From: Truepera sp.
GTDB lineage: Bacteria; Deinococcota; Deinococci; Deinococcales; Trueperaceae
NCBI GenBank assembly: GCA_965218435.1
Contig: CBDCKW010000009.1
Location: 64,001-128,000, forward strand
Length of the DNA: 64,000 nt
Direction: 5' to 3'
Made by a program: the position numbers and the translations under genes. Every line of letters begins with the position of its first letter. Positions within the stretch are counted from its first letter, which is position 1. Shown here piece by piece: positions 41,890 to 56,079 of this stretch. The notes under the pieces are model-generated. The model had not been told where the DNA came from. It made no database searches and worked only from the letters and a program-made list of their open reading frames with translations.

Positions 41890-41965
<76 letters not shown>

Positions 41966-41966
41966 A

Positions 41967-42041
41967 GGCTCCTTCGACTAGCGGTCAGGTCACCACTCTT
42001 TCACAGTGGCGACACGGGTTCGAATCCCGTAGGAGTCACCA
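41967..42041 (+). tRNA. tRNA-Glu(TTC)
   Basis: CCACT-CTTTCAC-AGTGG anticodon arm, GGTTCGAATC, CCA end. Confidence 0.96.
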
Positions 42042-42174
42042 GCAGACGGCGTTGGTATCACCTTGGGGTGGTACCAGCTTCTTTTAAGAGGTACTAGAAA
42101 GACCGGCGTCAACAACAAATTGAAGTCCGGTAGTCTATCAGTGAGTGCTTAGACTAGTTGCTGATACCAACCTT

Positions 42175-42250
42175 GGGCGATTAGCTCAGCTGGAAGAGCG
42201 CTTCCCTTACAAGGAAGATGTCGGGGGTTCGAGCCCCTCATCGCCCACCA
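42175..42250 (+). tRNA. tRNA-Val(TAC)
   Basis: CTTCC-CTTACAA-GGAAG anticodon arm, CCA end. Confidence 0.96.
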
Positions 42251-45233: not shown

Positions 45234-45520
45234 TCACGTCTTGTGCCGTTCGTTTTGTTGGTCGGGCCACCGCTCTTGACGAACCGGCAAGCGGTTGAGT
45301 TACCGCTGGTAAAAGGTCCGGTCCGGCATAAACTGATCTATCAAGGCGACAAAGCGGCTATGCGTGGCCTCGAGCAACTGCACCAGCTCGTGCAGCAAGA
45401 CGTACTCGAGGCACCCCTTCAGTTTTTTGGCTAAGTCCGTACTAAGCCTGATGCTCTTCCTAGCCGGGCTACAACTACCCCATTTTGTCTTCATCCGCCG
45501 GACAAAGAACGTTTTGACTA
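45234..45520 (-). pseudogene. 3' remnant of an M48/YgjP (DUF45) metallopeptidase-like gene
   Basis: MKTKWGSC..IRLSTDLAKK..LEYVLLHELVQLLE (HExxH decayed); internal TAA at 45300, then LNRLPVRQERW; 5' part missing. Confidence 0.75.
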
Positions 45521-45536
45521 TCCCAGCCCGCTAGTT

Positions 45537-45749
45537 CAAGCTATGCCCTTTAGGGCAAGACTTTAGTTGCTACTCATCTCTAAAGAGGTGACCGCGTTGA
45601 AAAACAAAGTAGTTCCACTATGTCGTCACCCACCGACGATAGAACCAACCTGTGCCGCGAGGTGCGAGAAGAAAAGGGCGCTATTCGAGCATGAGTCGGG
45701 ACTTTAGTCCAACTCAAACCTATGTACTTTCAGTGCATAGGTTGTTTAG
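45537..45749. mobile_element. Putative non-autonomous IS200/IS605-family remnant (both end hairpins, no ORF)
   Basis: CAAGCTATGCCCTTTAGGGCA at left and AAACCTATGTACTTTCAGTGCATAGGTTGTTTAG at right resemble IS200/IS605 subterminal hairpins. Confidence 0.5.
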
Positions 45750-46447
45750 TTCAACCTTTAACCGTGGCTGCCATTTGGCGATAAGTTCCGGTACTATATC
45801 TTTAAGTTGTTCCCGGTGCTAGGTCCCGAGTCCTTCCGCACGTTTGGCCTGTGGGAACGACAGCCTGAGCCGGAGGGATAGGGATAAAGGTTGCTGTCCT
45901 AGCACAGCCCCGGCATAGGTCACCCGTATTCTGAGCACCGATGAGGAAAACGCCCGGAGCAGGCGTGGGGGACGCTACCGGCTCACTCCTGAAATAGTTT
46001 TTGAGCACTTCAGGTGTTATCTGCGGTAAACGACAGACAAAAGATGCTGACTGCAAAGTTGTACGTTTTTTTACACTAAGGTGTCCGGCGGTTTGTTAGC
46101 CTTCGTTAACCTACTGCCGGGAGCAACCTATGGAGCAGCAATAATTCACCGGGTTCTGCTGACCTTCTAAGCTTAGCGAGAGCTAGCAGCGTGAAGTATG
46201 AAAGTAAGACTTAGACAGCAAGGAGCAGAAAAGTGATAGCTAAACAACGAAACCAGCGTCTCTCACGTACTTAAAGCATAACAAGCGCGAACGTCAATAC
46301 AACCCGGTTTTGGCGTTTCCTTCCGAACAGTTTGGTAACGCCTTGCAGCATATGTTCTGCGGCATAGGTATAGCAGGGCTTACGCCACCGCGCTACGCCA
46401 CACTTGTACGTCACACCTATATTACGTCACATCCAGAGGAGTCCAAG

Positions 46448-48373: not shown

Positions 48374-48702
48374 GTGAAGCGTGGTGATATTTACCGCGTA
48401 GACTGGGAAACCAGCATCAAAGGTGAGCCTGCTTTTAGCAGACCTGCTGTCATCTTGACAAACAATGATGCTAACAACCACCTACCTCATCTGGTAGTTG
48501 CCCCTATTACCAGCATACGCGCCTTTACCCCTTCGACGTTTTGCTGCCGGTCGCAGGTTGTGGGCTTAAAGAAAGCAGCAAAGTACAGCTCAACTATGTG
48601 CGTGGGCTCAACCGAACACCTTTAACGGGCTATCTGGGGTCACTCACCGAGGCGTTGCGGCTCGAGCTTGACGAAAAGTTACGGACTCACTTAGGGCTGT
48701 GA
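48374..48702 (+). pseudogene. Frameshifted PemK/MazF toxin
   Basis: MKRGDIY..GEPAFSRPAVILTNN..VVAPITS, shift near 48515, then RLYPFDVLL..GLKESSKVQ..LDEKLRTHLGL in another frame. Confidence 0.85.
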
Positions 48703-49141: not shown

Positions 49142-49999
49142 ATGAACGCAGAGCTTGTCGAACAGTTGCGGCGGACACAGCAAACGTTAGAACCTCGCGC
49201 CAAAGCACTGCGTAGCGCGGCGGGTGCGCTTAAGCAGGCGCTAAAGTTAGCCGGTGAAGACAAACCCGACGCCCTGCCGATGCAAAAGGCGCTGATCAAA
49301 CTGCAAGAGGCTGCCGAGGCCGTAGACGACGACACCCTACAGGAGGCCACCGGGCACTTCCAGGCTGAAACCGAAAAGGCTTTGGGTGCGCTGGCCTTCG
49401 AGTTTGCTAAAGACCTGCGTGAGGCGTTTACGGCGCGGGGGCTCGAGGTGACGGGTCGCCCTCCGATGTTGGCTGTCAGCGAGCTGGTGCTCGGTATCGA
49501 CACGGCGGCACGCAAGGCGGGGTGGTTTTACGGCAAAGAAGCCCTCACCCGCCCGCTCCCACTCTCGCTCAGCGCCGTCGTAGGAGCGTTCGAGGGGGAG
49601 CAGCGAACGATTCTGGCGCGTGAGCTGGACACTGAAGCGTTCTTGGGAGAACTTTATACGACCTGGACGCAGGTGCTTGAGGGTAAGAGCCGCCGACCTC
49701 AGGGGGGGCGGGTCAGCCTGATCGAGACGTACAGCAAACTGGTGCTGAACCGGCAGTCGGGCCGCTTTTGGAACGCACCGTCGCGCAGCACTTTTCGGGA
49801 CTACCCGCGTGCGCTGTTCGTACGCGACCTGGTGCTGGCGCAGCCCTCGCCCACGCTTACGGTGGGCGGTGAGCGGCAGCGGCTCTTTTTGGGCGTCGCT
49901 ACCAAAAGTCAGGCGGAGAGCTCGAGCCGCAGTCTCTGGGTACCGCAGGGACCATTTGAGGGCGGCTACTACGCGGATATCACCTTTGAACCGGTTTAA
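49142..49999 (+). CDS. Hypothetical protein (285 aa), first gene of the ATPase/helicase cluster
   Basis: SD GAAAGGTGG; TGT-TACACT extended -10 upstream; helical N-terminus; no family recognised. Confidence 0.8.
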   Translation: MNAELVEQLRRTQQTLEPRAKALRSAAGALKQALKLAGEDKPDALPMQKALIKLQEAAEAVDDDTLQEATGHFQAETEKALGALAFEFAKDLREAFTARGLEVTGRPPMLAVSELVLGIDTAARKAGWFYGKEALTRPLPLSLSAVVGAFEGEQRTILARELDTEAFLGELYTTWTQVLEGKSRRPQGGRVSLIETYSKLVLNRQSGRFWNAPSRSTFRDYPRALFVRDLVLAQPSPTLTVGGERQRLFLGVATKSQAESSSRSLWVPQGPFEGGYYADITFEPV

Positions 50000-50084
50000 G
50001 CGGTAACCTCAGTCGGCAGTGATTTTGGTCGGCAACGAGCTAAACCGTACCGGGTGGATATAATCGGCCCATGATGAACCTCGT

Positions 50085-50239
50085 CTTACGCACAAGCCGT
50101 CACACAAGGTATCAAAGGTACAGCAATGCCGAGCAGGGGAAACATAGAGCACAGAATGCTTGGTTGATGCTCCTTGCTGTATTCGCTGTTCCTTACGCGG
50201 TGACCCAAACCCGTCTACTGAGAACAAACCGCGTGTGAG
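50085..50239. repeat. Structured intergenic element, copy 1
   Basis: Shares CTTACGCACAAGCYGTCA..ACAGCAAT and CGTCTACYGAGAACAAACYGCGT with 53070-53330. Confidence 0.8.
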
Positions 50240-50240
50240 T

Positions 50241-51515
50241 ATGAACCTTTCACCGGCTCTCGCCCGTTCTATCGTCGAAGTGTTGGGGGCGTCCGGCACC
50301 CCACCCGACCGAGGGGTGCAACACTTTAACGTGGGCAACCGCTCGCTGGTCGAGGCGCTCGACACTTACTACTTCTCGTCGTATCTGCAAGACGGCGGCG
50401 CAGCCTTTAAGCTGGTCGTAGGTGACTACGGCAGCGGCAAGTCGCACTTTCTCTACTGCCTAAGAGACGTGGCCTGGGCGCGCGGCTTTGCGGTCGTCAA
50501 GGTTGACCTGAGCCCCACCGAGACGCCCTACAACGACCAGCGGCTCGTTTACGGCGCGGTCGCCCGCAACCTCGTTTGGCACGAGGGCGAAGGCGTTTCG
50601 GACGAGGCTGGACTACCCCGCTTTTTGGAGGGTACCCTGACCCGCATCGTCGGTGAGGAACCGAGTCTCGAGACCTTGAACCACCCTAACTACCGTGCGC
50701 TGGTTGATACTCTCGAGGCCAGCACGATTGACAGCGCAGCGTATAAAGTGGCGGTGCTCGCCTACTTCGACGCACTGCTGGGCGCTCATGAGGAGCGGTT
50801 GGCCTCACTGACGCGCTGGCTGCTGGCCGAAGACACCACCCCGGACGACACCAGGGTGCTGCGCGGCCTCGGCGTCACCGGCAAGATTACGCGCACCAAC
50901 GCCTTTAGAATGCTCCGTTCGCTCGCGCAGACCGTGCGGGCGCTTTCCTACAGCGGCCTGCTCCTGCTCTTCGACGAGGTTGACCGGATGAGCAGCATCG
51001 GCGGCAAAGCCGAACGGCTCGCGACCGACACCCTCCGCGAGGTCGTTGACCGCTGCCGCGACGACTTGCCCGGCGCGATGTTCGTCTACGCGGTTCCGCC
51101 GCAATTTATGAGTGACGTGGTGCCGCGTTATCCCGCCCTGCAACAGCGTCTGCGTGCTCCGGCGCGGTTTTCCAGAACGAACCACTTCAGCCCGCAGATC
51201 AGCTTGGAGCATCTCGATTTAGCCGAAGACGACCTGATGCTCGCCATCGGCGAAAAGCTCGTGCCCATCTTTGAGACCGCGTTCGGGGCCGACCTCGATG
51301 AGAAAATCCAGCACGCCAACGCCGCCATCCTCGCGAACGTCGCGCGCGACGTGTTTCTCGATGTAAGCCACCGGCGGCTGTTTATCAAGACTTTTGTCAC
51401 CGAACTCGCCCGCCAGCACGCCGAAGGGGAGCGGGTGCTGACCGAGCCGGAGGCTACGGCCCGGTTGCGGGGTCAGGCCGAAGCCCTTGGGGACGGCCTG
51501 ACCCCACCGTACTAG
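50241..51515 (+). CDS. DUF2791/BrxD-like P-loop ATPase
   Basis: GTPP, FKLVVGDYGSGKSHFL, ARGFAVVKVDLSP, GLLLLFDEVD, YPALQQRL. Confidence 0.8.
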   Translation: MNLSPALARSIVEVLGASGTPPDRGVQHFNVGNRSLVEALDTYYFSSYLQDGGAAFKLVVGDYGSGKSHFLYCLRDVAWARGFAVVKVDLSPTETPYNDQRLVYGAVARNLVWHEGEGVSDEAGLPRFLEGTLTRIVGEEPSLETLNHPNYRALVDTLEASTIDSAAYKVAVLAYFDALLGAHEERLASLTRWLLAEDTTPDDTRVLRGLGVTGKITRTNAFRMLRSLAQTVRALSYSGLLLLFDEVDRMSSIGGKAERLATDTLREVVDRCRDDLPGAMFVYAVPPQFMSDVVPRYPALQQRLRAPARFSRTNHFSPQISLEHLDLAEDDLMLAIGEKLVPIFETAFGADLDEKIQHANAAILANVARDVFLDVSHRRLFIKTFVTELARQHAEGERVLTEPEATARLRGQAEALGDGLTPPY

Positions 51516-51517
51516 AG

Positions 51518-52951
51518 ATGATCGGGACGCCCGTTGAGCACCCTCAGTACGGCCCCGGTCAGGTGGTCGCCGTTTACAAACGGGGCAGCGAGTGGTTGGT
51601 GCGTTTTGAGAGCGGCCTGCGTTTCCGGCGACCCCGGCAGGAGTTTACGGGGGAGCACGCCGACGCCGCGCCCATCGCCCCGGCTCGTGCCACTCAAGTC
51701 AACCCGCCGCTGCTCGAGGGCCGGTTTGGGGCACGTGGGCTGATCGAGGCGCTGCGGCTCGGCATTGCGCCTGCGCAGCAAGCGCAGGCGCTTACCATCG
51801 GTCTGGAGAAAGAGCGTGCCAGCCTGGGCGCAGGGTTAGAGAGTGCGCAGCGGGGTCACGGCGCGGTGCGTGCGGTGGTCGGCGACTACGGTCAGGGCAA
51901 GAGCCACATCGTCGAACTCACCGCTCAAGCGGCGCTCGAGCGCAACTTTTTGGTCGCCGGTAGCAGTCTCGACCTGCTCGAGCTGCCGCCCCACCGCGGC
52001 TTCGATATCTACGCCAGCCTCGCGCAGAACCTCCGCTACCCGGACAACGACGAGTGGGGGGACGAGCGGGGGTTGGGGCCGCTGTTAGAACGCGCCACCG
52101 AACGGCAGCTCGCGGAACCTCTGGCGGCGGCAGCGGCGCTCGAGGTTGATCCCTTACAGCTCACCGTCCGCGCCCTGGCGACGACCGCTTCGTCGCGGCA
52201 GCGGCGTGCTTGGGAGCGGTTTTTAGCCGAAGGTCGCCGGGTTAAAGCGATGAACCCGGCCCTCAAGCAGCTTTTACCCAAGGGGCAACGGTTTCCCAGC
52301 CTCTACAAGGTCGGTCACAACGCCCGTCAGCTGGCCTATCTGCTGAGCGGCGTGAGCGTCCTCGCCCGGCTCGCGGGGTACAGCGGTCTCGCGGTCCTCA
52401 TCGACGAAGCCGAAAGCTACTCGCTGCTCAAGCCTTACCAGCGCCCCAAAGCAGGGCAATTTTTCAGCGCGGTCAGCTATGCGGCGCTGTCGGGCCGACA
52501 CCCACATCTGCGCGAAAATGACTTCGCTCATCACCGCTTCTGGGACTACCCGCTGTACTATGGGGGTTCCTCTGGTAATTCTTATAGCGGCTCCGCCGGA
52601 CTCTTTTTTCTCTTTACCGTAACCCGCAGCGATAACCGCTTGCCGCTCGAGGTGTGGCTCGCGCCTGAAGACGTGCTCGAGCTCGAGCCTCATCTCAGCC
52701 CGCAAGAACTCGCGCAGTTTTTAGAGACGCTGGGGCGTTTTCACGCCCAAGCCTACGCTTACACGCCGGACGAGCGCCACGGACAACTGCGCCGCGCCGC
52801 CGCAGAACACCTCGCGCGGGGGGTGCGAAACCACCTTTTGGGCGTACGCGGGGCGGTGCGCCTGAGCGTTGACCTTTTCGACCTCCTCTATCTCTACCCT
52901 GAGTACGAAGTGGTGACGATCTTGGACGAACTGCGGGCGCAGCTGCGATAG
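51518..52951 (+). CDS. Second DUF2791/BrxD-like P-loop ATPase with an N-terminal Tudor-like module
   Basis: IEALRLG, GDYGQGKSH, LARLAGYSGLAVLIDEAE; N-terminal VEHPQYGPGQV..VRF. Confidence 0.8.
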   Translation: MIGTPVEHPQYGPGQVVAVYKRGSEWLVRFESGLRFRRPRQEFTGEHADAAPIAPARATQVNPPLLEGRFGARGLIEALRLGIAPAQQAQALTIGLEKERASLGAGLESAQRGHGAVRAVVGDYGQGKSHIVELTAQAALERNFLVAGSSLDLLELPPHRGFDIYASLAQNLRYPDNDEWGDERGLGPLLERATERQLAEPLAAAAALEVDPLQLTVRALATTASSRQRRAWERFLAEGRRVKAMNPALKQLLPKGQRFPSLYKVGHNARQLAYLLSGVSVLARLAGYSGLAVLIDEAESYSLLKPYQRPKAGQFFSAVSYAALSGRHPHLRENDFAHHRFWDYPLYYGGSSGNSYSGSAGLFFLFTVTRSDNRLPLEVWLAPEDVLELEPHLSPQELAQFLETLGRFHAQAYAYTPDERHGQLRRAAAEHLARGVRNHLLGVRGAVRLSVDLFDLLYLYPEYEVVTILDELRAQLR

Positions 52952-53069
52952 CTGTCGCCATTTCAGAACCAGTTAAAGGTGTTGACAGCGTGCACTGTGG
53001 AAAAGAAGCAGGAAGCAGTAAGTGGCGGCCAGCTAAAAAACCGTGTTTCTCTACGCACTCAAAACGCAG

Positions 53070-53330
53070 CTTACGCACAAGCTGTCAAAGACACAGCAAT
53101 ACTTCGGACAGGTTTTGACATAAAATCCGAGTTGACTCGTCTGTGACGCAAAGCTCTTTGATAAAAGTCGTATCGAGAAGCGTCGTCCCCGACGTGTTTT
53201 CTAGGAAAGTATCCGAACTAATGATACAGAACATCTGCTGAAAAGGAAGAATGAAGCGTTCTCTACTCTCCCTTCTGCGTTCTTCATTCCTTTATATACC
53301 CACTCGTCTACCGAGAACAAACTGCGTAAG
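53070..53330. repeat. Structured intergenic element, copy 2 (8-bp terminal inverted repeat)
   Basis: CTTACGCA...TGCGTAAG; end blocks homologous to 50085-50239. Confidence 0.8.
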
Positions 53331-53406
53331 GTGAATGAGGACGTAAGGCTCGAGCGCCCCAACGTCCAACCGATAGACGACCCTAAAGGGTAAGCTTTGA
53401 GGGCAG

Positions 53407-55476
53407 ATGGACACGCAGCTCAAAACCCAACTCGCCCGCACTTGGCCGGTCTTCTTCGCCGGGTACGGCTCGTTTACCGAGGTGCAGCGGCGCGCCATGC
53501 CCGTCATCTTGGCTGGTTGGGACACGCTGATTACGGCTGCGACCGCCTCGGGCAAAACCGAAGCGGCGCTGGTCCCGCTTTTAGAGCGGCACATCCTCGG
53601 CCGTGAGGGTTCCGGGCTGCGCCTCTTGTACCTCTGCCCGACGCGTGCGCTGCTCCGCGACCTGTTTGGGCGGCTCGAGCCCTCCTTACGCACCCTGGGC
53701 GTTGCGGCAACTATGAAAAGCGGCGATACCGGCCCGGTCTCTTCGCGTCGCCCGCCCACGGTACTCTTTACCACCCCGGAATCGACCGACTCGCTCCTCA
53801 CCCGTTCCCCCCGCCTCTTCCGAACCCTCGAGGCGCTTGTCCTAGATGAAATCCATCTCTTTGACGACAGTCCCAGAGGGGATCAGGTGCGCTGTCTGCT
53901 GGCACGTCTCGAGGTCATCCGTCAATTCAGTCAACCAGAGTTTGGTCAGCCGACGCGCCCCCCCGCACAGCGCGTCGCCCTCTCCGCCACCGTGGACGCG
54001 CCGGGGGCAATTGCCGCACGGTATCTGCGTGACGCGGTGATCGTTCAGGTTCCGGGCCACCGGGGTATAGCGGCCGAAATCGCGTCCATAAGTGAGCTTG
54101 GCGACCTGACGGCGGCGCTCGCAAAGGGCACCGCCAAAAAGACCCTCGTCTTTTGTAACACCCGTCACGAGGTCGAGCAGGTCGGGACTTTTTTGCGCCA
54201 AACGCTCCCTTTCGAGGCCACCGTACTGGTGCATTACGCCGATCTGGACAGCGCCATGCGGCGCGAGGTGGAGACGCGCTTTGCCGAAGCGAGCGTCGCG
54301 GTCTGTGTCAGCACCTCGACGTTGGAACTCGGCGTTGACATCGGCAGCGTCGATGAGGTGGCGCTGCTCGGGCCGCCCCCCAACCTGAGTGCGTTTTTGC
54401 AGCGCGTCGGACGGGGTGGCCGGCGGCGGCGCGAGAGCCGGGTGTTATGTTTGGCCCGCTCCGCGCTCGAGGTTCGCCACTTCGACGCGCTGCTCCGCCT
54501 GGCGCATGGGTTGATGCCTAAACTCCCGGCGCGGCACTACCCCTTTCGGCCGTCGGTATTGGTTCAACAGGCTTTTAGCCTCATCAAGCAGAGCCCTACC
54601 GGAGGGTTGCGTTTGGCCGACCTGCGCCGCGTTGTGCCGGAGGGACTAGGGGAGGGGACGCTCCGGAACGTTTTAGATCACCTCGTTACGGAAGACTACC
54701 TGACGCGCGGACGACCCGGCGAGTGGCGGGCCGGGCCGGGTCTCAACGAACTCGCGGACCGGCACGAGCTTTACAGCAACATCGGCGGCGACGTTTTGAC
54801 GACGACTGTCGTAGACGCTTACAGCGGACGACCGGTCGCCCGTACCGACCGACCGCGCCGGGTCGGTGAAACGTTGCTGATGGCGGGCCGCCCGGTCGAA
54901 GTGGCGTGGCGCGACCGGCACACGTTTGCGGTCAAGGAAGGTAAGCGCAGCGCCGCAAAAGACGTCATGCGCCTGGTCCGTTCGCGTCAAGCGGTACCGC
55001 TCGAGCTGGCTCAAGGCGTCGCTTCGTCATTCGGCCTTGGGGTAGGGGAGATGCCGCTTTTGCAGGACTCCTACGGGCTGCAGCTCGTTCATTTTTGGGG
55101 CGACGTTTACGGCGCGTGGCTCGCAGCTATCTTGCAAGCACACCACCTACAAAAATATTGGGAAGCACAGTACGCGCGTGAGGACGAACCCTTTGTGTTC
55201 TCGTACGACGCTTATACGCTCCGCCTTCCGTTTCCAGTCCCGGCCTTGCCGCCGTGGGACAGCACACTGGCGCTGGGCACGCTTAAAACGCTGGTACCCC
55301 GGCTCGAGCCTTACCTCGAGCTGGGCCGCTTTCAGCCTCTCTTGTCACCGGAGGTGGCGCTCGGGGGAATTGTAGCGGAGTGCGACGTAGTGCGGTTTGA
55401 AGCCCTTTACCGCGCAGGGAGGCTGATACCGGTGTCGCCGGGGCTCCGTGAAGCGTTACGGGAGCTGCACGAATAA
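53407..55476 (+). CDS. Lhr/BrxHI-like SF2 DEAD/DEAH helicase
   Basis: Q motif, ATASGKTEAA, PTRAL, TTPES, DEIH, LSAT, TSTLELGVDIG, QRVGRGGR. Confidence 0.9.
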   Translation: MDTQLKTQLARTWPVFFAGYGSFTEVQRRAMPVILAGWDTLITAATASGKTEAALVPLLERHILGREGSGLRLLYLCPTRALLRDLFGRLEPSLRTLGVAATMKSGDTGPVSSRRPPTVLFTTPESTDSLLTRSPRLFRTLEALVLDEIHLFDDSPRGDQVRCLLARLEVIRQFSQPEFGQPTRPPAQRVALSATVDAPGAIAARYLRDAVIVQVPGHRGIAAEIASISELGDLTAALAKGTAKKTLVFCNTRHEVEQVGTFLRQTLPFEATVLVHYADLDSAMRREVETRFAEASVAVCVSTSTLELGVDIGSVDEVALLGPPPNLSAFLQRVGRGGRRRRESRVLCLARSALEVRHFDALLRLAHGLMPKLPARHYPFRPSVLVQQAFSLIKQSPTGGLRLADLRRVVPEGLGEGTLRNVLDHLVTEDYLTRGRPGEWRAGPGLNELADRHELYSNIGGDVLTTTVVDAYSGRPVARTDRPRRVGETLLMAGRPVEVAWRDRHTFAVKEGKRSAAKDVMRLVRSRQAVPLELAQGVASSFGLGVGEMPLLQDSYGLQLVHFWGDVYGAWLAAILQAHHLQKYWEAQYAREDEPFVFSYDAYTLRLPFPVPALPPWDSTLALGTLKTLVPRLEPYLELGRFQPLLSPEVALGGIVAECDVVRFEALYRAGRLIPVSPGLREALRELHE

Positions 55477-55646: not shown

Positions 55647-56079
55647 AAGACACAAAATCCAGAAACACATTTACTAGGTTGTGTTGATGTTTGCTCTTAT
55701 TATCCTGCTTTAAGTCCGTGAGAGACGCTATTTTCGTTATTCGGCTACTGCCTTCTGCTTGACTCTTTCGCATTACATACAGCTGACGACCCTCGCTAAG
55801 CTCAGAATATCAGCAGAACCCAGCTAGTGGCTAACCCAGGCATCATTACGGGCACTACGCGACCTCTGGACTCGCACTTCGCGCCACGCTTCAAGGGGCA
55901 CAGAGAGCATGACCAGCTTGGCTTGACCGTGACGTACATATTTGCTGACGCATATTCGTAATCCGTGCGGATGCAGGTGTGGGCCAGCACACCCTAGAGG
56001 GAGATGATGACCCAAAACCTCAGTTGAAAGTTCCGTTACCGCGAAGTCAAAGGGGCAGCTGGTCCGTCTGAGCGTGCTG

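Follow-up and report, generated by a model that had tools for sequence, protein, structure and literature searches.

What is the role of four adjacent genes, encoding a short protein of no named family, two related ATPases and an Lhr-like helicase, in the genome of a Truepera species? The genes occupy positions 49142-55476 of the window analysed here, a stretch of 64,000 nucleotides (nt) of Truepera sp. contig CBDCKW010000009.1 (positions 64,001 to 128,000), and form a cassette that is a real, conserved and unnamed variant of the module combining a DUF2791 ATPase with an Lhr helicase. To judge by profile scores, the closest families of the cassette proteins are parts of defence systems (BrxD, SngB, BrxHI and SngC). 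The explanation favoured here, with a probability of roughly 0.55, is that the cassette works on its own against phages or plasmids, as a module akin to BrxD-BrxHI and Shango, and that its design is that of an ORC/Cdc6-like helicase loader split over several proteins. The cassette comprises the following features, in window coordinates.

49142-49999, plus strand: gene 1, 285 residues, of a family without a name.
49616-49996, plus strand: winged-helix domain of gene 1, residues 159-285; predicted local distance difference test (pLDDT) score of 97 when folded alone.
50000-50240, no strand: gap of 241 nt between gene 1 and ATPase 1, with a diverged dispersed repeat at about 50117-50229 that has 72-76% matches at two other genome sites.
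50241-51515, plus strand: ATPase 1, 424 residues, a DUF2791/BrxD-like AAA+ protein with GDYGSGKSH and FDEVD motifs.
51518-52951, plus strand: ATPase 2, 477 residues, a paralogue with GDYGQGKSH and IDEAE motifs, starting 2 nt after ATPase 1.
51518-51661, plus strand: UvrD/PcrA-like Tudor domain of ATPase 2, N-terminal residues 1-48, from a profile match to solved UvrD chains.
52952-53406, no strand: gap of 455 nt between ATPase 2 and the helicase, with a diverged dispersed repeat at about 53097-53248 that has four other copies (75-79%).
53407-55476, plus strand: superfamily 2 (SF2) helicase, 689 residues, DEIH, Lhr/BrxHI/SngC-like, motifs intact.
54802-54846, plus strand: beta-hairpin of the helicase (approximately residues 466-480), which exceeds that of BrxHI/SngC by two residues and has D-x-x-[ST]-G spacing.

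The cassette is present once in the host genome, and its four open reading frames (ORFs) are intact and lie on the same strand, as described in an earlier sequence-only reading of the locus. Compared with the copy in genome G008, all four genes are under purifying selection, with a proportion of nonsynonymous differences (pN) of 0.09-0.21 and a synonymous proportion (pS) of about 0.6; for ATPase 1 the values are 0.09 and 0.57. The conserved four-gene synteny proposed as a check in that reading was found in three sets of relatives. In the near set, where ATPase 1 is 69-86% identical within the clade, 27 of 40 loci keep the full four-gene order, 12 are truncated where the contig or the fetched stretch ends, and one is decayed. 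A second clade of 28 metagenome loci, with ATPase 1 about 35% identical, has all four genes in 13; the remainder comprises seven loci with gene 1 and both ATPases followed by unrelated genes, two with gene 1 alone and six that are cut. In one Chloroflexota order 53 genomes are positive; 20 loci on long contigs were picked from them, of which 19 show the four genes in order (three of these broken) and one is a wreck. Copies more distant still reside on plasmids of Aulosira laxa (AP018310) and Desulfomonile tiedjei (NC_018026).

The distribution of the cassette is patchy and mobile, which speaks for a defence role. It was found in none of five genomes of the same genus, in 10 of 364 genomes of its own phylum (after three weak matches were dropped as coiled-coil noise), in 25 of 401 of one class (after two were dropped on the same grounds) and, with a narrower profile, in 2 of 401 across Chloroflexota. 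The flanks differ among nearly all 20 loci of the Chloroflexota order, and decayed copies were observed at L087, L137, L144, L146 and L150. Two unpublished genomes, G061 and G744, are counted once each in the own-phylum, class and 40-locus sets and are also among the motif rows below (G061 being one of the six rows of the Tudor search); no conclusion rests on either.

On its gene content, the cassette is neither BREX nor Shango. A feature of BREX types 2 and 6 is present, namely a BrxHI-like helicase (237 bits) adjoining two PF10923 ATPases. The cassette is nevertheless not BREX, because PglZ (PF08665) gave no match in the host genome, which is 100% complete, in a search whose control was positive in 2 of 14 genomes. 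For PglX and BrxC/PglY, no such ORF was seen by eye at 40-64 kilobases (kb) of the window, and no family search was aimed at them; of the reported absence of pglX, pglZ and brxC, that of pglZ is confirmed genome-wide. Nor is the cassette Shango, because gene 1 is not TerB-like: neither gene 1 nor any of 121 homologues gave a Pfam TerB or PADLOC SngA match, and a gene 1 profile compared with five SngA proteins reached at best an E-value of 0.07 (hmmsearch) and a probability below 0.1% (hhalign). The view of the locus as a stand-alone unit that fully matches neither of these named systems is thus upheld.

Both ATPases belong to PF10923 (BrxC_BrxD/DUF2791), scoring 156 bits for ATPase 1 and 96 bits for ATPase 2 against a gathering cut-off of 22, and both fall below the cut-off of 350 of the NCBIfam BrxD equivalog NF033438 (116 and 66 bits); their PADLOC SngB scores are 98 and 60 bits. 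The description of two paralogous P-loop ATPases placed 2 nt apart is accurate, and the pair consists of old, non-equivalent paralogues. Identity between them is only 23%. A FastTree phylogeny with local support only recovered two mirrored clades, one with 24 of 27 ATPase 1 rows and the other with 23 of 26 ATPase 2 rows, both apart from the clade of BrxD and SngB; it gives no clear position to the ATPases from the three remotest cassettes. The duplication is therefore ancient, at any rate where the two main clades are concerned.

The catalytic residues also distinguish the paralogues. Walker A is kept in all 58 ATPase 1 and all 53 ATPase 2 copies. Across 46 matched loci, ATPase 1 is invariant at Walker A K67, Walker B D245-E246, the arginine finger R303 and a sensor-2-like R379, and ATPase 2 at Walker A K128, Walker B D296-E297, T369 and R444. 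In ATPase 2 the finger segment is shortened, W379 is aligned to R303 of ATPase 1, and no arginine reaches 60% of the 46 rows anywhere in residues 343-443. An arginine-finger pattern was found in 55 of 58 ATPase 1 copies and in none of 53 ATPase 2 copies, a pattern that also misses three of five SngB proteins; two plasmid ATPase 2 copies carry an arginine near the finger position. The R303 motif also occurs in BrxD (5/5 references), and it lies where PMC12839542 positions the arginine finger.

ATPase 2 is further distinguished by its N-terminal Tudor domain, which matched the solved UvrD chains 4c2t (E 3e-4) and 7egt (E 4e-4). The Tudor family PF21196 matched six of six members below its cut-off (15.5 bits for the window copy versus 23.9). 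Of 53 ATPase 2 copies 50 carry the domain, which is absent from every ATPase 1, BrxD and SngB row. According to the available text of PMC8318588, RNA polymerase and UvrB each present a hairpin with the motif [VIL]-D-x-x-T-G-E-[VIL]-[VILT] to which the PcrA/UvrD Tudor domain binds. A strict scan of the host proteome for this helicase-interaction motif returned three matches, none resembling RpoB or UvrB.

The fourth gene, previously labelled an SF2 Lhr-type helicase, does contain DEAD and Helicase_C domains, with BrxHI as its best PADLOC match and SngC next at 208 bits. All 23 cassette helicases in the tree (FastTree, local support) fall on one side of a branch that sets them apart from BrxHI and four SngC references. 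By eye, the hairpin is two residues longer in 35 helicases paired with a Tudor-bearing ATPase 2 than in three paired with a Tudor-less one, and a D-x-x-[ST]-G-type pattern is present in 27 of the 35, in none of the three and in none of eight BrxHI, SngC or other references. The apparent association between the Tudor domain and the long hairpin is a lead, not a result: its single clade amounts to one event, the Tudor domain persists in loci lacking an adjacent helicase, and the glutamate of the interaction motif is missing, with TGE in no cassette helicase and mostly [ST]-G-[RQ] in its place.

Gene 1, which the sequence-only reading left unassigned, has no match in Pfam, PADLOC or NCBIfam, and 121 diverse members of its family gave no consistent Pfam or PADLOC match. 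The family comprises 423 matches among 8000 candidates, with 700 clusters at 50% identity fitting its profile, and its relatives in the ESM Atlas form three clusters of hypothetical proteins without Pfam domains. An AlphaFold2 model (pLDDT 93) predicts a three-helix bundle (residues 1-97), a small beta-rich middle (98-160) and the C-terminal winged-helix domain, in which most of the near-invariant residues are located (Q205, F209, P213, Y221, R223, F226, D229, A253 and G274). The best VIA-align matches of this domain are ORC/Cdc6 complexes (Z 6.2, 5.9 and 5.8; root-mean-square deviation (rmsd) about 3.2 A over about 80 residues, and 3.2 A over 78 residues for the top match), tied with a Polycomblike winged helix, Stn1 and TubR in a list made up mostly of winged-helix-type folds. 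Assignment of the C-terminus to the winged-helix fold class is therefore reasonably supported by the model, and the protein resembles winged-helix proteins that bind DNA or serve as adaptors; a sensor role, the other option in the sequence-only reading, is conceivable.

Other searches with gene 1 were less specific. Foldseek against the PDB and viral models gave no match at E 0.001, for the winged-helix domain as well, a VIA search with the whole protein was filled by generic helical bundles, and the gene 1 profile run against the sequences of solved structures gave coiled-coil matches only. No relative was found in viral contigs with two pattern sets, and a weak search of 7993 candidates of 642-2000 residues found no longer form. 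A complex prediction of gene 1 (residues 99-285) with both ATPases scored 0.23 against a mark of 0.32, with controls not folded, and is used neither way. Within the family, P0220 (481 residues) joins the C-terminal half of gene 1 to an apparent C-terminal half of the helicase and is possibly a deletion product. A subfamily of about 345 residues (P0135-P0158, one member from Bryobacterales) has a longer helical N-terminus, and L089, a four-gene locus with an embedded Uma2 gene, may belong to it. Homology of the winged helix to the C-terminal part of SngA, of PglZ or of the lead proteins from Deinococcus psychrotolerans described below was considered and rejected, as it received no profile support from the shallow alignments used.

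The relatives of the cassette frequently carry other genes inside it. In the Chloroflexota order, 10 of 19 loci have internal insertions of more than 900 nt, in every case between ATPase 2 and the helicase (the site of the 455-nt gap in the window), and 8 of these 10 insertions contain defence or toxin-antitoxin (TA) genes according to a scan of 94 of 135 cluster representatives. Their cargo includes Menshen NsnB-NsnC (E 3e-114 and 1e-84), a C5 methyltransferase, PIN and Phd; a type II methyltransferase and a partner are embedded in four of the loci, of which one representative was scanned. In the near set, 10 of 27 complete loci have more than 600 nt inside the cassette, and seven of these insertions encode HicB, PIN, AAA_21, a methyltransferase, HEPN, HEC-01A/B or Uma2 (129 of 219 neighbours scanned, and 87 of 139 in the second clade). 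This embedding is the strongest sign of a defence role. Outside the cassette, only 2 of 72 scanned flanking proteins were defence- or TA-like.

Some copies also have defence genes next to them. On the Aulosira plasmid, a pglX-pglZ-brxD-brxHI block immediately precedes the cassette and is itself preceded by four genes arranged as in type 6 (those four lying outside the family scan). The Desulfomonile plasmid copy lies about 3 kb from an AbiE pair, and in genome G981 the cassette sits after PDC-S68 and before a type I restriction-modification (RM) specificity fragment. Directly upstream of the Desulfomonile cassette (L019, 8880-10085) is a helix-turn-helix protein of 401 residues that may be a regulator or a replication protein. 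Paired with the embedded type II methyltransferase at L142 (11132-11842; also at L134, L141 and L143) is a 237-residue protein without a Pfam or PADLOC match, a candidate for an unannotated restriction enzyme. Other unannotated embedded proteins, candidates through guilt by embedding, occur at L145 (6438-7808), L147 (10205-11137), L133 (8408-9634) and L087 (9113-9643).

Overall, defence is plausible because of the embedded defence genes in relatives and the copy behind BREX, rather than because of local context, and the cassette is probably a defence system. What the sequence-only reading proposed, a stand-alone anti-phage system with a hetero-oligomeric ATPase in a defence-island setting, is retained as to a conserved stand-alone unit with two non-equivalent ATPases and abandoned as to the setting; the hetero-oligomer and the anti-phage function remain proposals. 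A number of observations weigh against the favoured explanation. Flanking genes are mostly housekeeping, here and in relatives. One Chloroflexota order is positive in 53 of 167 genomes, in single copy. In the second clade there is almost no embedding, 7 of 28 loci have no helicase next to the ATPases, gene 1 stands alone in two, and 8 of 13 complete loci share one downstream glycosyltransferase gene, which indicates long vertical retention. The embedding counts are raw, uncorrected for the background rate of TA or RM insertion into ordinary operons, five of the loci with embedded methyltransferases probably reflect one insertion by descent, and the insertion at L135 is metabolic. Additionally, the four proteins showed no effector domain, nuclease or otherwise, the Z-scores of the winged helix are modest and tied so that Cdc6 is not singled out, and the Tudor domain, together with three loci downstream of XPB, points to repair.

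Repair is the next most probable explanation, possible but clearly behind defence. The cassette would then be an accessory machine for DNA repair or transcription conflicts, in which the loader delivers its Lhr-like helicase to R-loops, stalled transcription complexes or DNA damage, while the Tudor domain docks on RNA polymerase or UvrB in the manner of the PcrA/UvrD C-terminal domain. The similarity to UvrD C-terminal domains, the known partners of the PcrA Tudor, the strong conservation of ATPase 1 in the near clade, the stable second-clade neighbourhood, the frequency in one order and the lack of an effector nuclease would all fit such a machine. An XPB operon, with genes for an XPB helicase and Helicase_C_3-domain proteins, lies directly upstream of the cassette, co-directional with it, at L072 (309-6254), L078 and L091, and the cassette is beside uvrC at L140 and recQ at L149. 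Against this, the XPB-linked loci are close kin and probably represent one event, most relatives of the host do without the cassette, its embedded cargo is mostly defence, three distant cassettes (both plasmid copies among them) have no Tudor domain, and the motif scan returned nothing like RpoB or UvrB. An unlikely third explanation makes the cassette a dependent helper that supplies translocation only alongside another system (BREX, RM or an embedded nuclease) and gives no defence alone. One copy does abut a complete BREX, RM methyltransferases and ATPase-nuclease pairs are often embedded, no effector domain was found, and BrxD-BrxHI is itself an accessory dyad of BREX; however, PglZ is absent from the host genome, no other system is embedded in or adjacent to many of the copies, the present one among them, and the Aulosira BREX already owns a BrxD-BrxHI pair. 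Finally, the locus could be a plain diverged Shango or an orphan BrxD-BrxHI with a recent, neutral ATPase duplication, as its best PADLOC labels (BrxD/SngB and BrxHI/SngC) would allow. This last account is largely refuted and highly improbable, given a gene 1 unlike the five SngA proteins, ATPases in separate mirrored clades that each have their own invariant residues, and a helicase clade apart from BrxHI and SngC.

Under the defence explanation, a mechanism can be proposed. An AAA+ subunit that has a site but no finger terminates a spiral. Several ATPase 1 subunits would form a spiral on DNA, and ATPase 2 would cap it, leaving an open end, because it should be activatable by its neighbour yet unable to activate the next subunit. 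BrxD-type ATPases have no winged helix for binding DNA, and gene 1 would provide one in trans; the Tudor domain would recruit the helicase via its long hairpin or bind a host partner (RNA polymerase or UvrB). Once loaded, the helicase may unwind or strip incoming or replicating foreign DNA, with any cutting performed by host or embedded nucleases. The specific architecture, a bacterial ORC/Cdc6-like heteromeric loader of an SF2 helicase spread over three genes (a polymerising ATPase with a finger, a fingerless cap whose Tudor domain holds the helicase hairpin or finds transcription or repair complexes, and a winged-helix protein of its own for choosing the DNA), is put forward only tentatively. 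If true, it would describe a defence or genome-surveillance machine that unwinds without a nuclease of its own, and it would explain the roles of BrxD and SngB. Since the ATPase is split into two subunits of visibly different jobs alongside a winged-helix protein, the loader model is testable by single mutations. Moreover, the cassette adds to the known hosts of embedded defence genes, in phyla that have been little studied, and can thereby supply further candidates.

The immediate surroundings in the window contain one toxin-like remnant, which is context and not part of the unit.

48374-48702, plus strand: MazF/PemK remnant, PemK match E 8e-10, frameshifted, with its N- and C-terminal halves in different frames.

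The decayed MazF reported upstream of the cassette is therefore real. A minus-strand remnant at about 45300-45530 was read by eye as M48/YgjP-like. The defence-island context claimed for the locus was not borne out, as the local case is thin: an intact 660-residue gene intervenes, the M48-like remnant and repeats lie 3-4 kb away, and the genes downstream are, by eye, for sugar utilisation. What had been called IS-like ends are dispersed repeats, and no transposase was seen by eye among ORFs of at least 80 residues at 40-64 kb of the window. Two copies of a repeat of about 150 nt (46151-46304 and 55677-55821; 71% identical, opposite orientation, about 10 copies genome-wide) flank the 660-residue gene, the MazF remnant and the cassette, and may be an old insertion mark or chance. 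A 242-nt stretch at 45513-45754, 99% identical to one other genome site, interrupts or abuts the M48/YgjP-like remnant and is possibly a recent miniature mobile element. Farther out, a cluster of tRNA-Lys, -Glu and -Val genes (41890-42250) lies 7 kb upstream of the cassette and is followed by a region of dispersed repeats.

Searches of mainly open literature on DUF2791/PF10923, BrxD/BrxHI, Shango and Lhr-like helicases turned up no description of the cassette in titles and abstract openings. The covered parts of PMC12839542, 10.1101/2025.09.30.679545, PMC8318588 and the Shango and Hma papers likewise make no mention of it. Comparison with known systems places the cassette among them as follows. 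AAA+ loaders such as ORC/Cdc6 and the clamp loaders combine paralogous subunits that have unequal catalytic sets with winged-helix domains. The cassette, by analogy, also has paralogous AAA+ subunits with unequal catalytic sets and a winged helix; it differs in that a protein distinct from the ATPases bears the winged helix, that an SF2 helicase rather than a ring would be loaded, and that the system is known from genes alone. As in PcrA/UvrD, where the Tudor domain is C-terminal, the domain in the cassette is accompanied by a helicase hairpin of similar spacing; here, however, it is N-terminal on an AAA+ ATPase instead of on a helicase, and the hairpin does not have the essential glutamate. 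Hma (helicase-methylase-ATPase) resembles the cassette in hosting embedded defence genes (HEC-01 itself being among the cassette cargo) and in usually lying outside defence islands, with 62.7% of Hma systems carrying embedded genes and typically having no defence neighbours in the covered part of 10.1101/2024.01.29.577857. The genes of the two are unrelated, the cassette having no methylase and using other helicase and ATPase families.

Operons of TerB, DUF2791 and Lhr genes were reportedly predicted by Anantharaman et al. in 2012. Shango, like the cassette, is a stand-alone operon of a lead protein, a DUF2791 ATPase and an Lhr-like helicase with no evident nuclease, and it protects against phages according to the available parts of 10.1101/2022.11.11.516204 and 10.1101/2022.05.11.491447. 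It differs in its lead protein, the SngA references being TerB-domain proteins of 573-873 residues whereas the cassette lead is a 285-residue winged-helix protein without TerB similarity; the cassette also has two ATPases and a Tudor domain, and its ATPases and helicase belong to other clades than SngB and SngC. A separate arrangement was observed on a Deinococcus psychrotolerans plasmid (L018, 6011-13425 and 14845-19813), where one BrxD-like ATPase and a helicase follow two long coiled-coil proteins with related C-termini and no TerB annotation; the ATPase-helicase-HNH block is duplicated, and both ATPase and helicase group with BrxD/BrxHI in the two trees. The BrxD-BrxHI dyad of BREX types 2 and 6 shares with the cassette an ORC/Cdc6-clade ATPase beside a helicase of the same architecture, as well as the arginine-finger motif common to ATPase 1 and BrxD. 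The cassette differs from the dyad in having no pglZ in the genome, ATPases far under the BrxD cut-off, a fingerless second ATPase and an extra lead gene. In the accessible portion of PMC12839542, BrxD-BrxHI is an accessory dyad of BREX, and BrxD is an ORC-Cdc6-clade ATPase without a DNA-binding domain, its role uncharacterised, proposed to load BrxHI. The anatomy of the cassette bears on the role of BrxD-BrxHI in BREX and on that of SngB-SngC in Shango.

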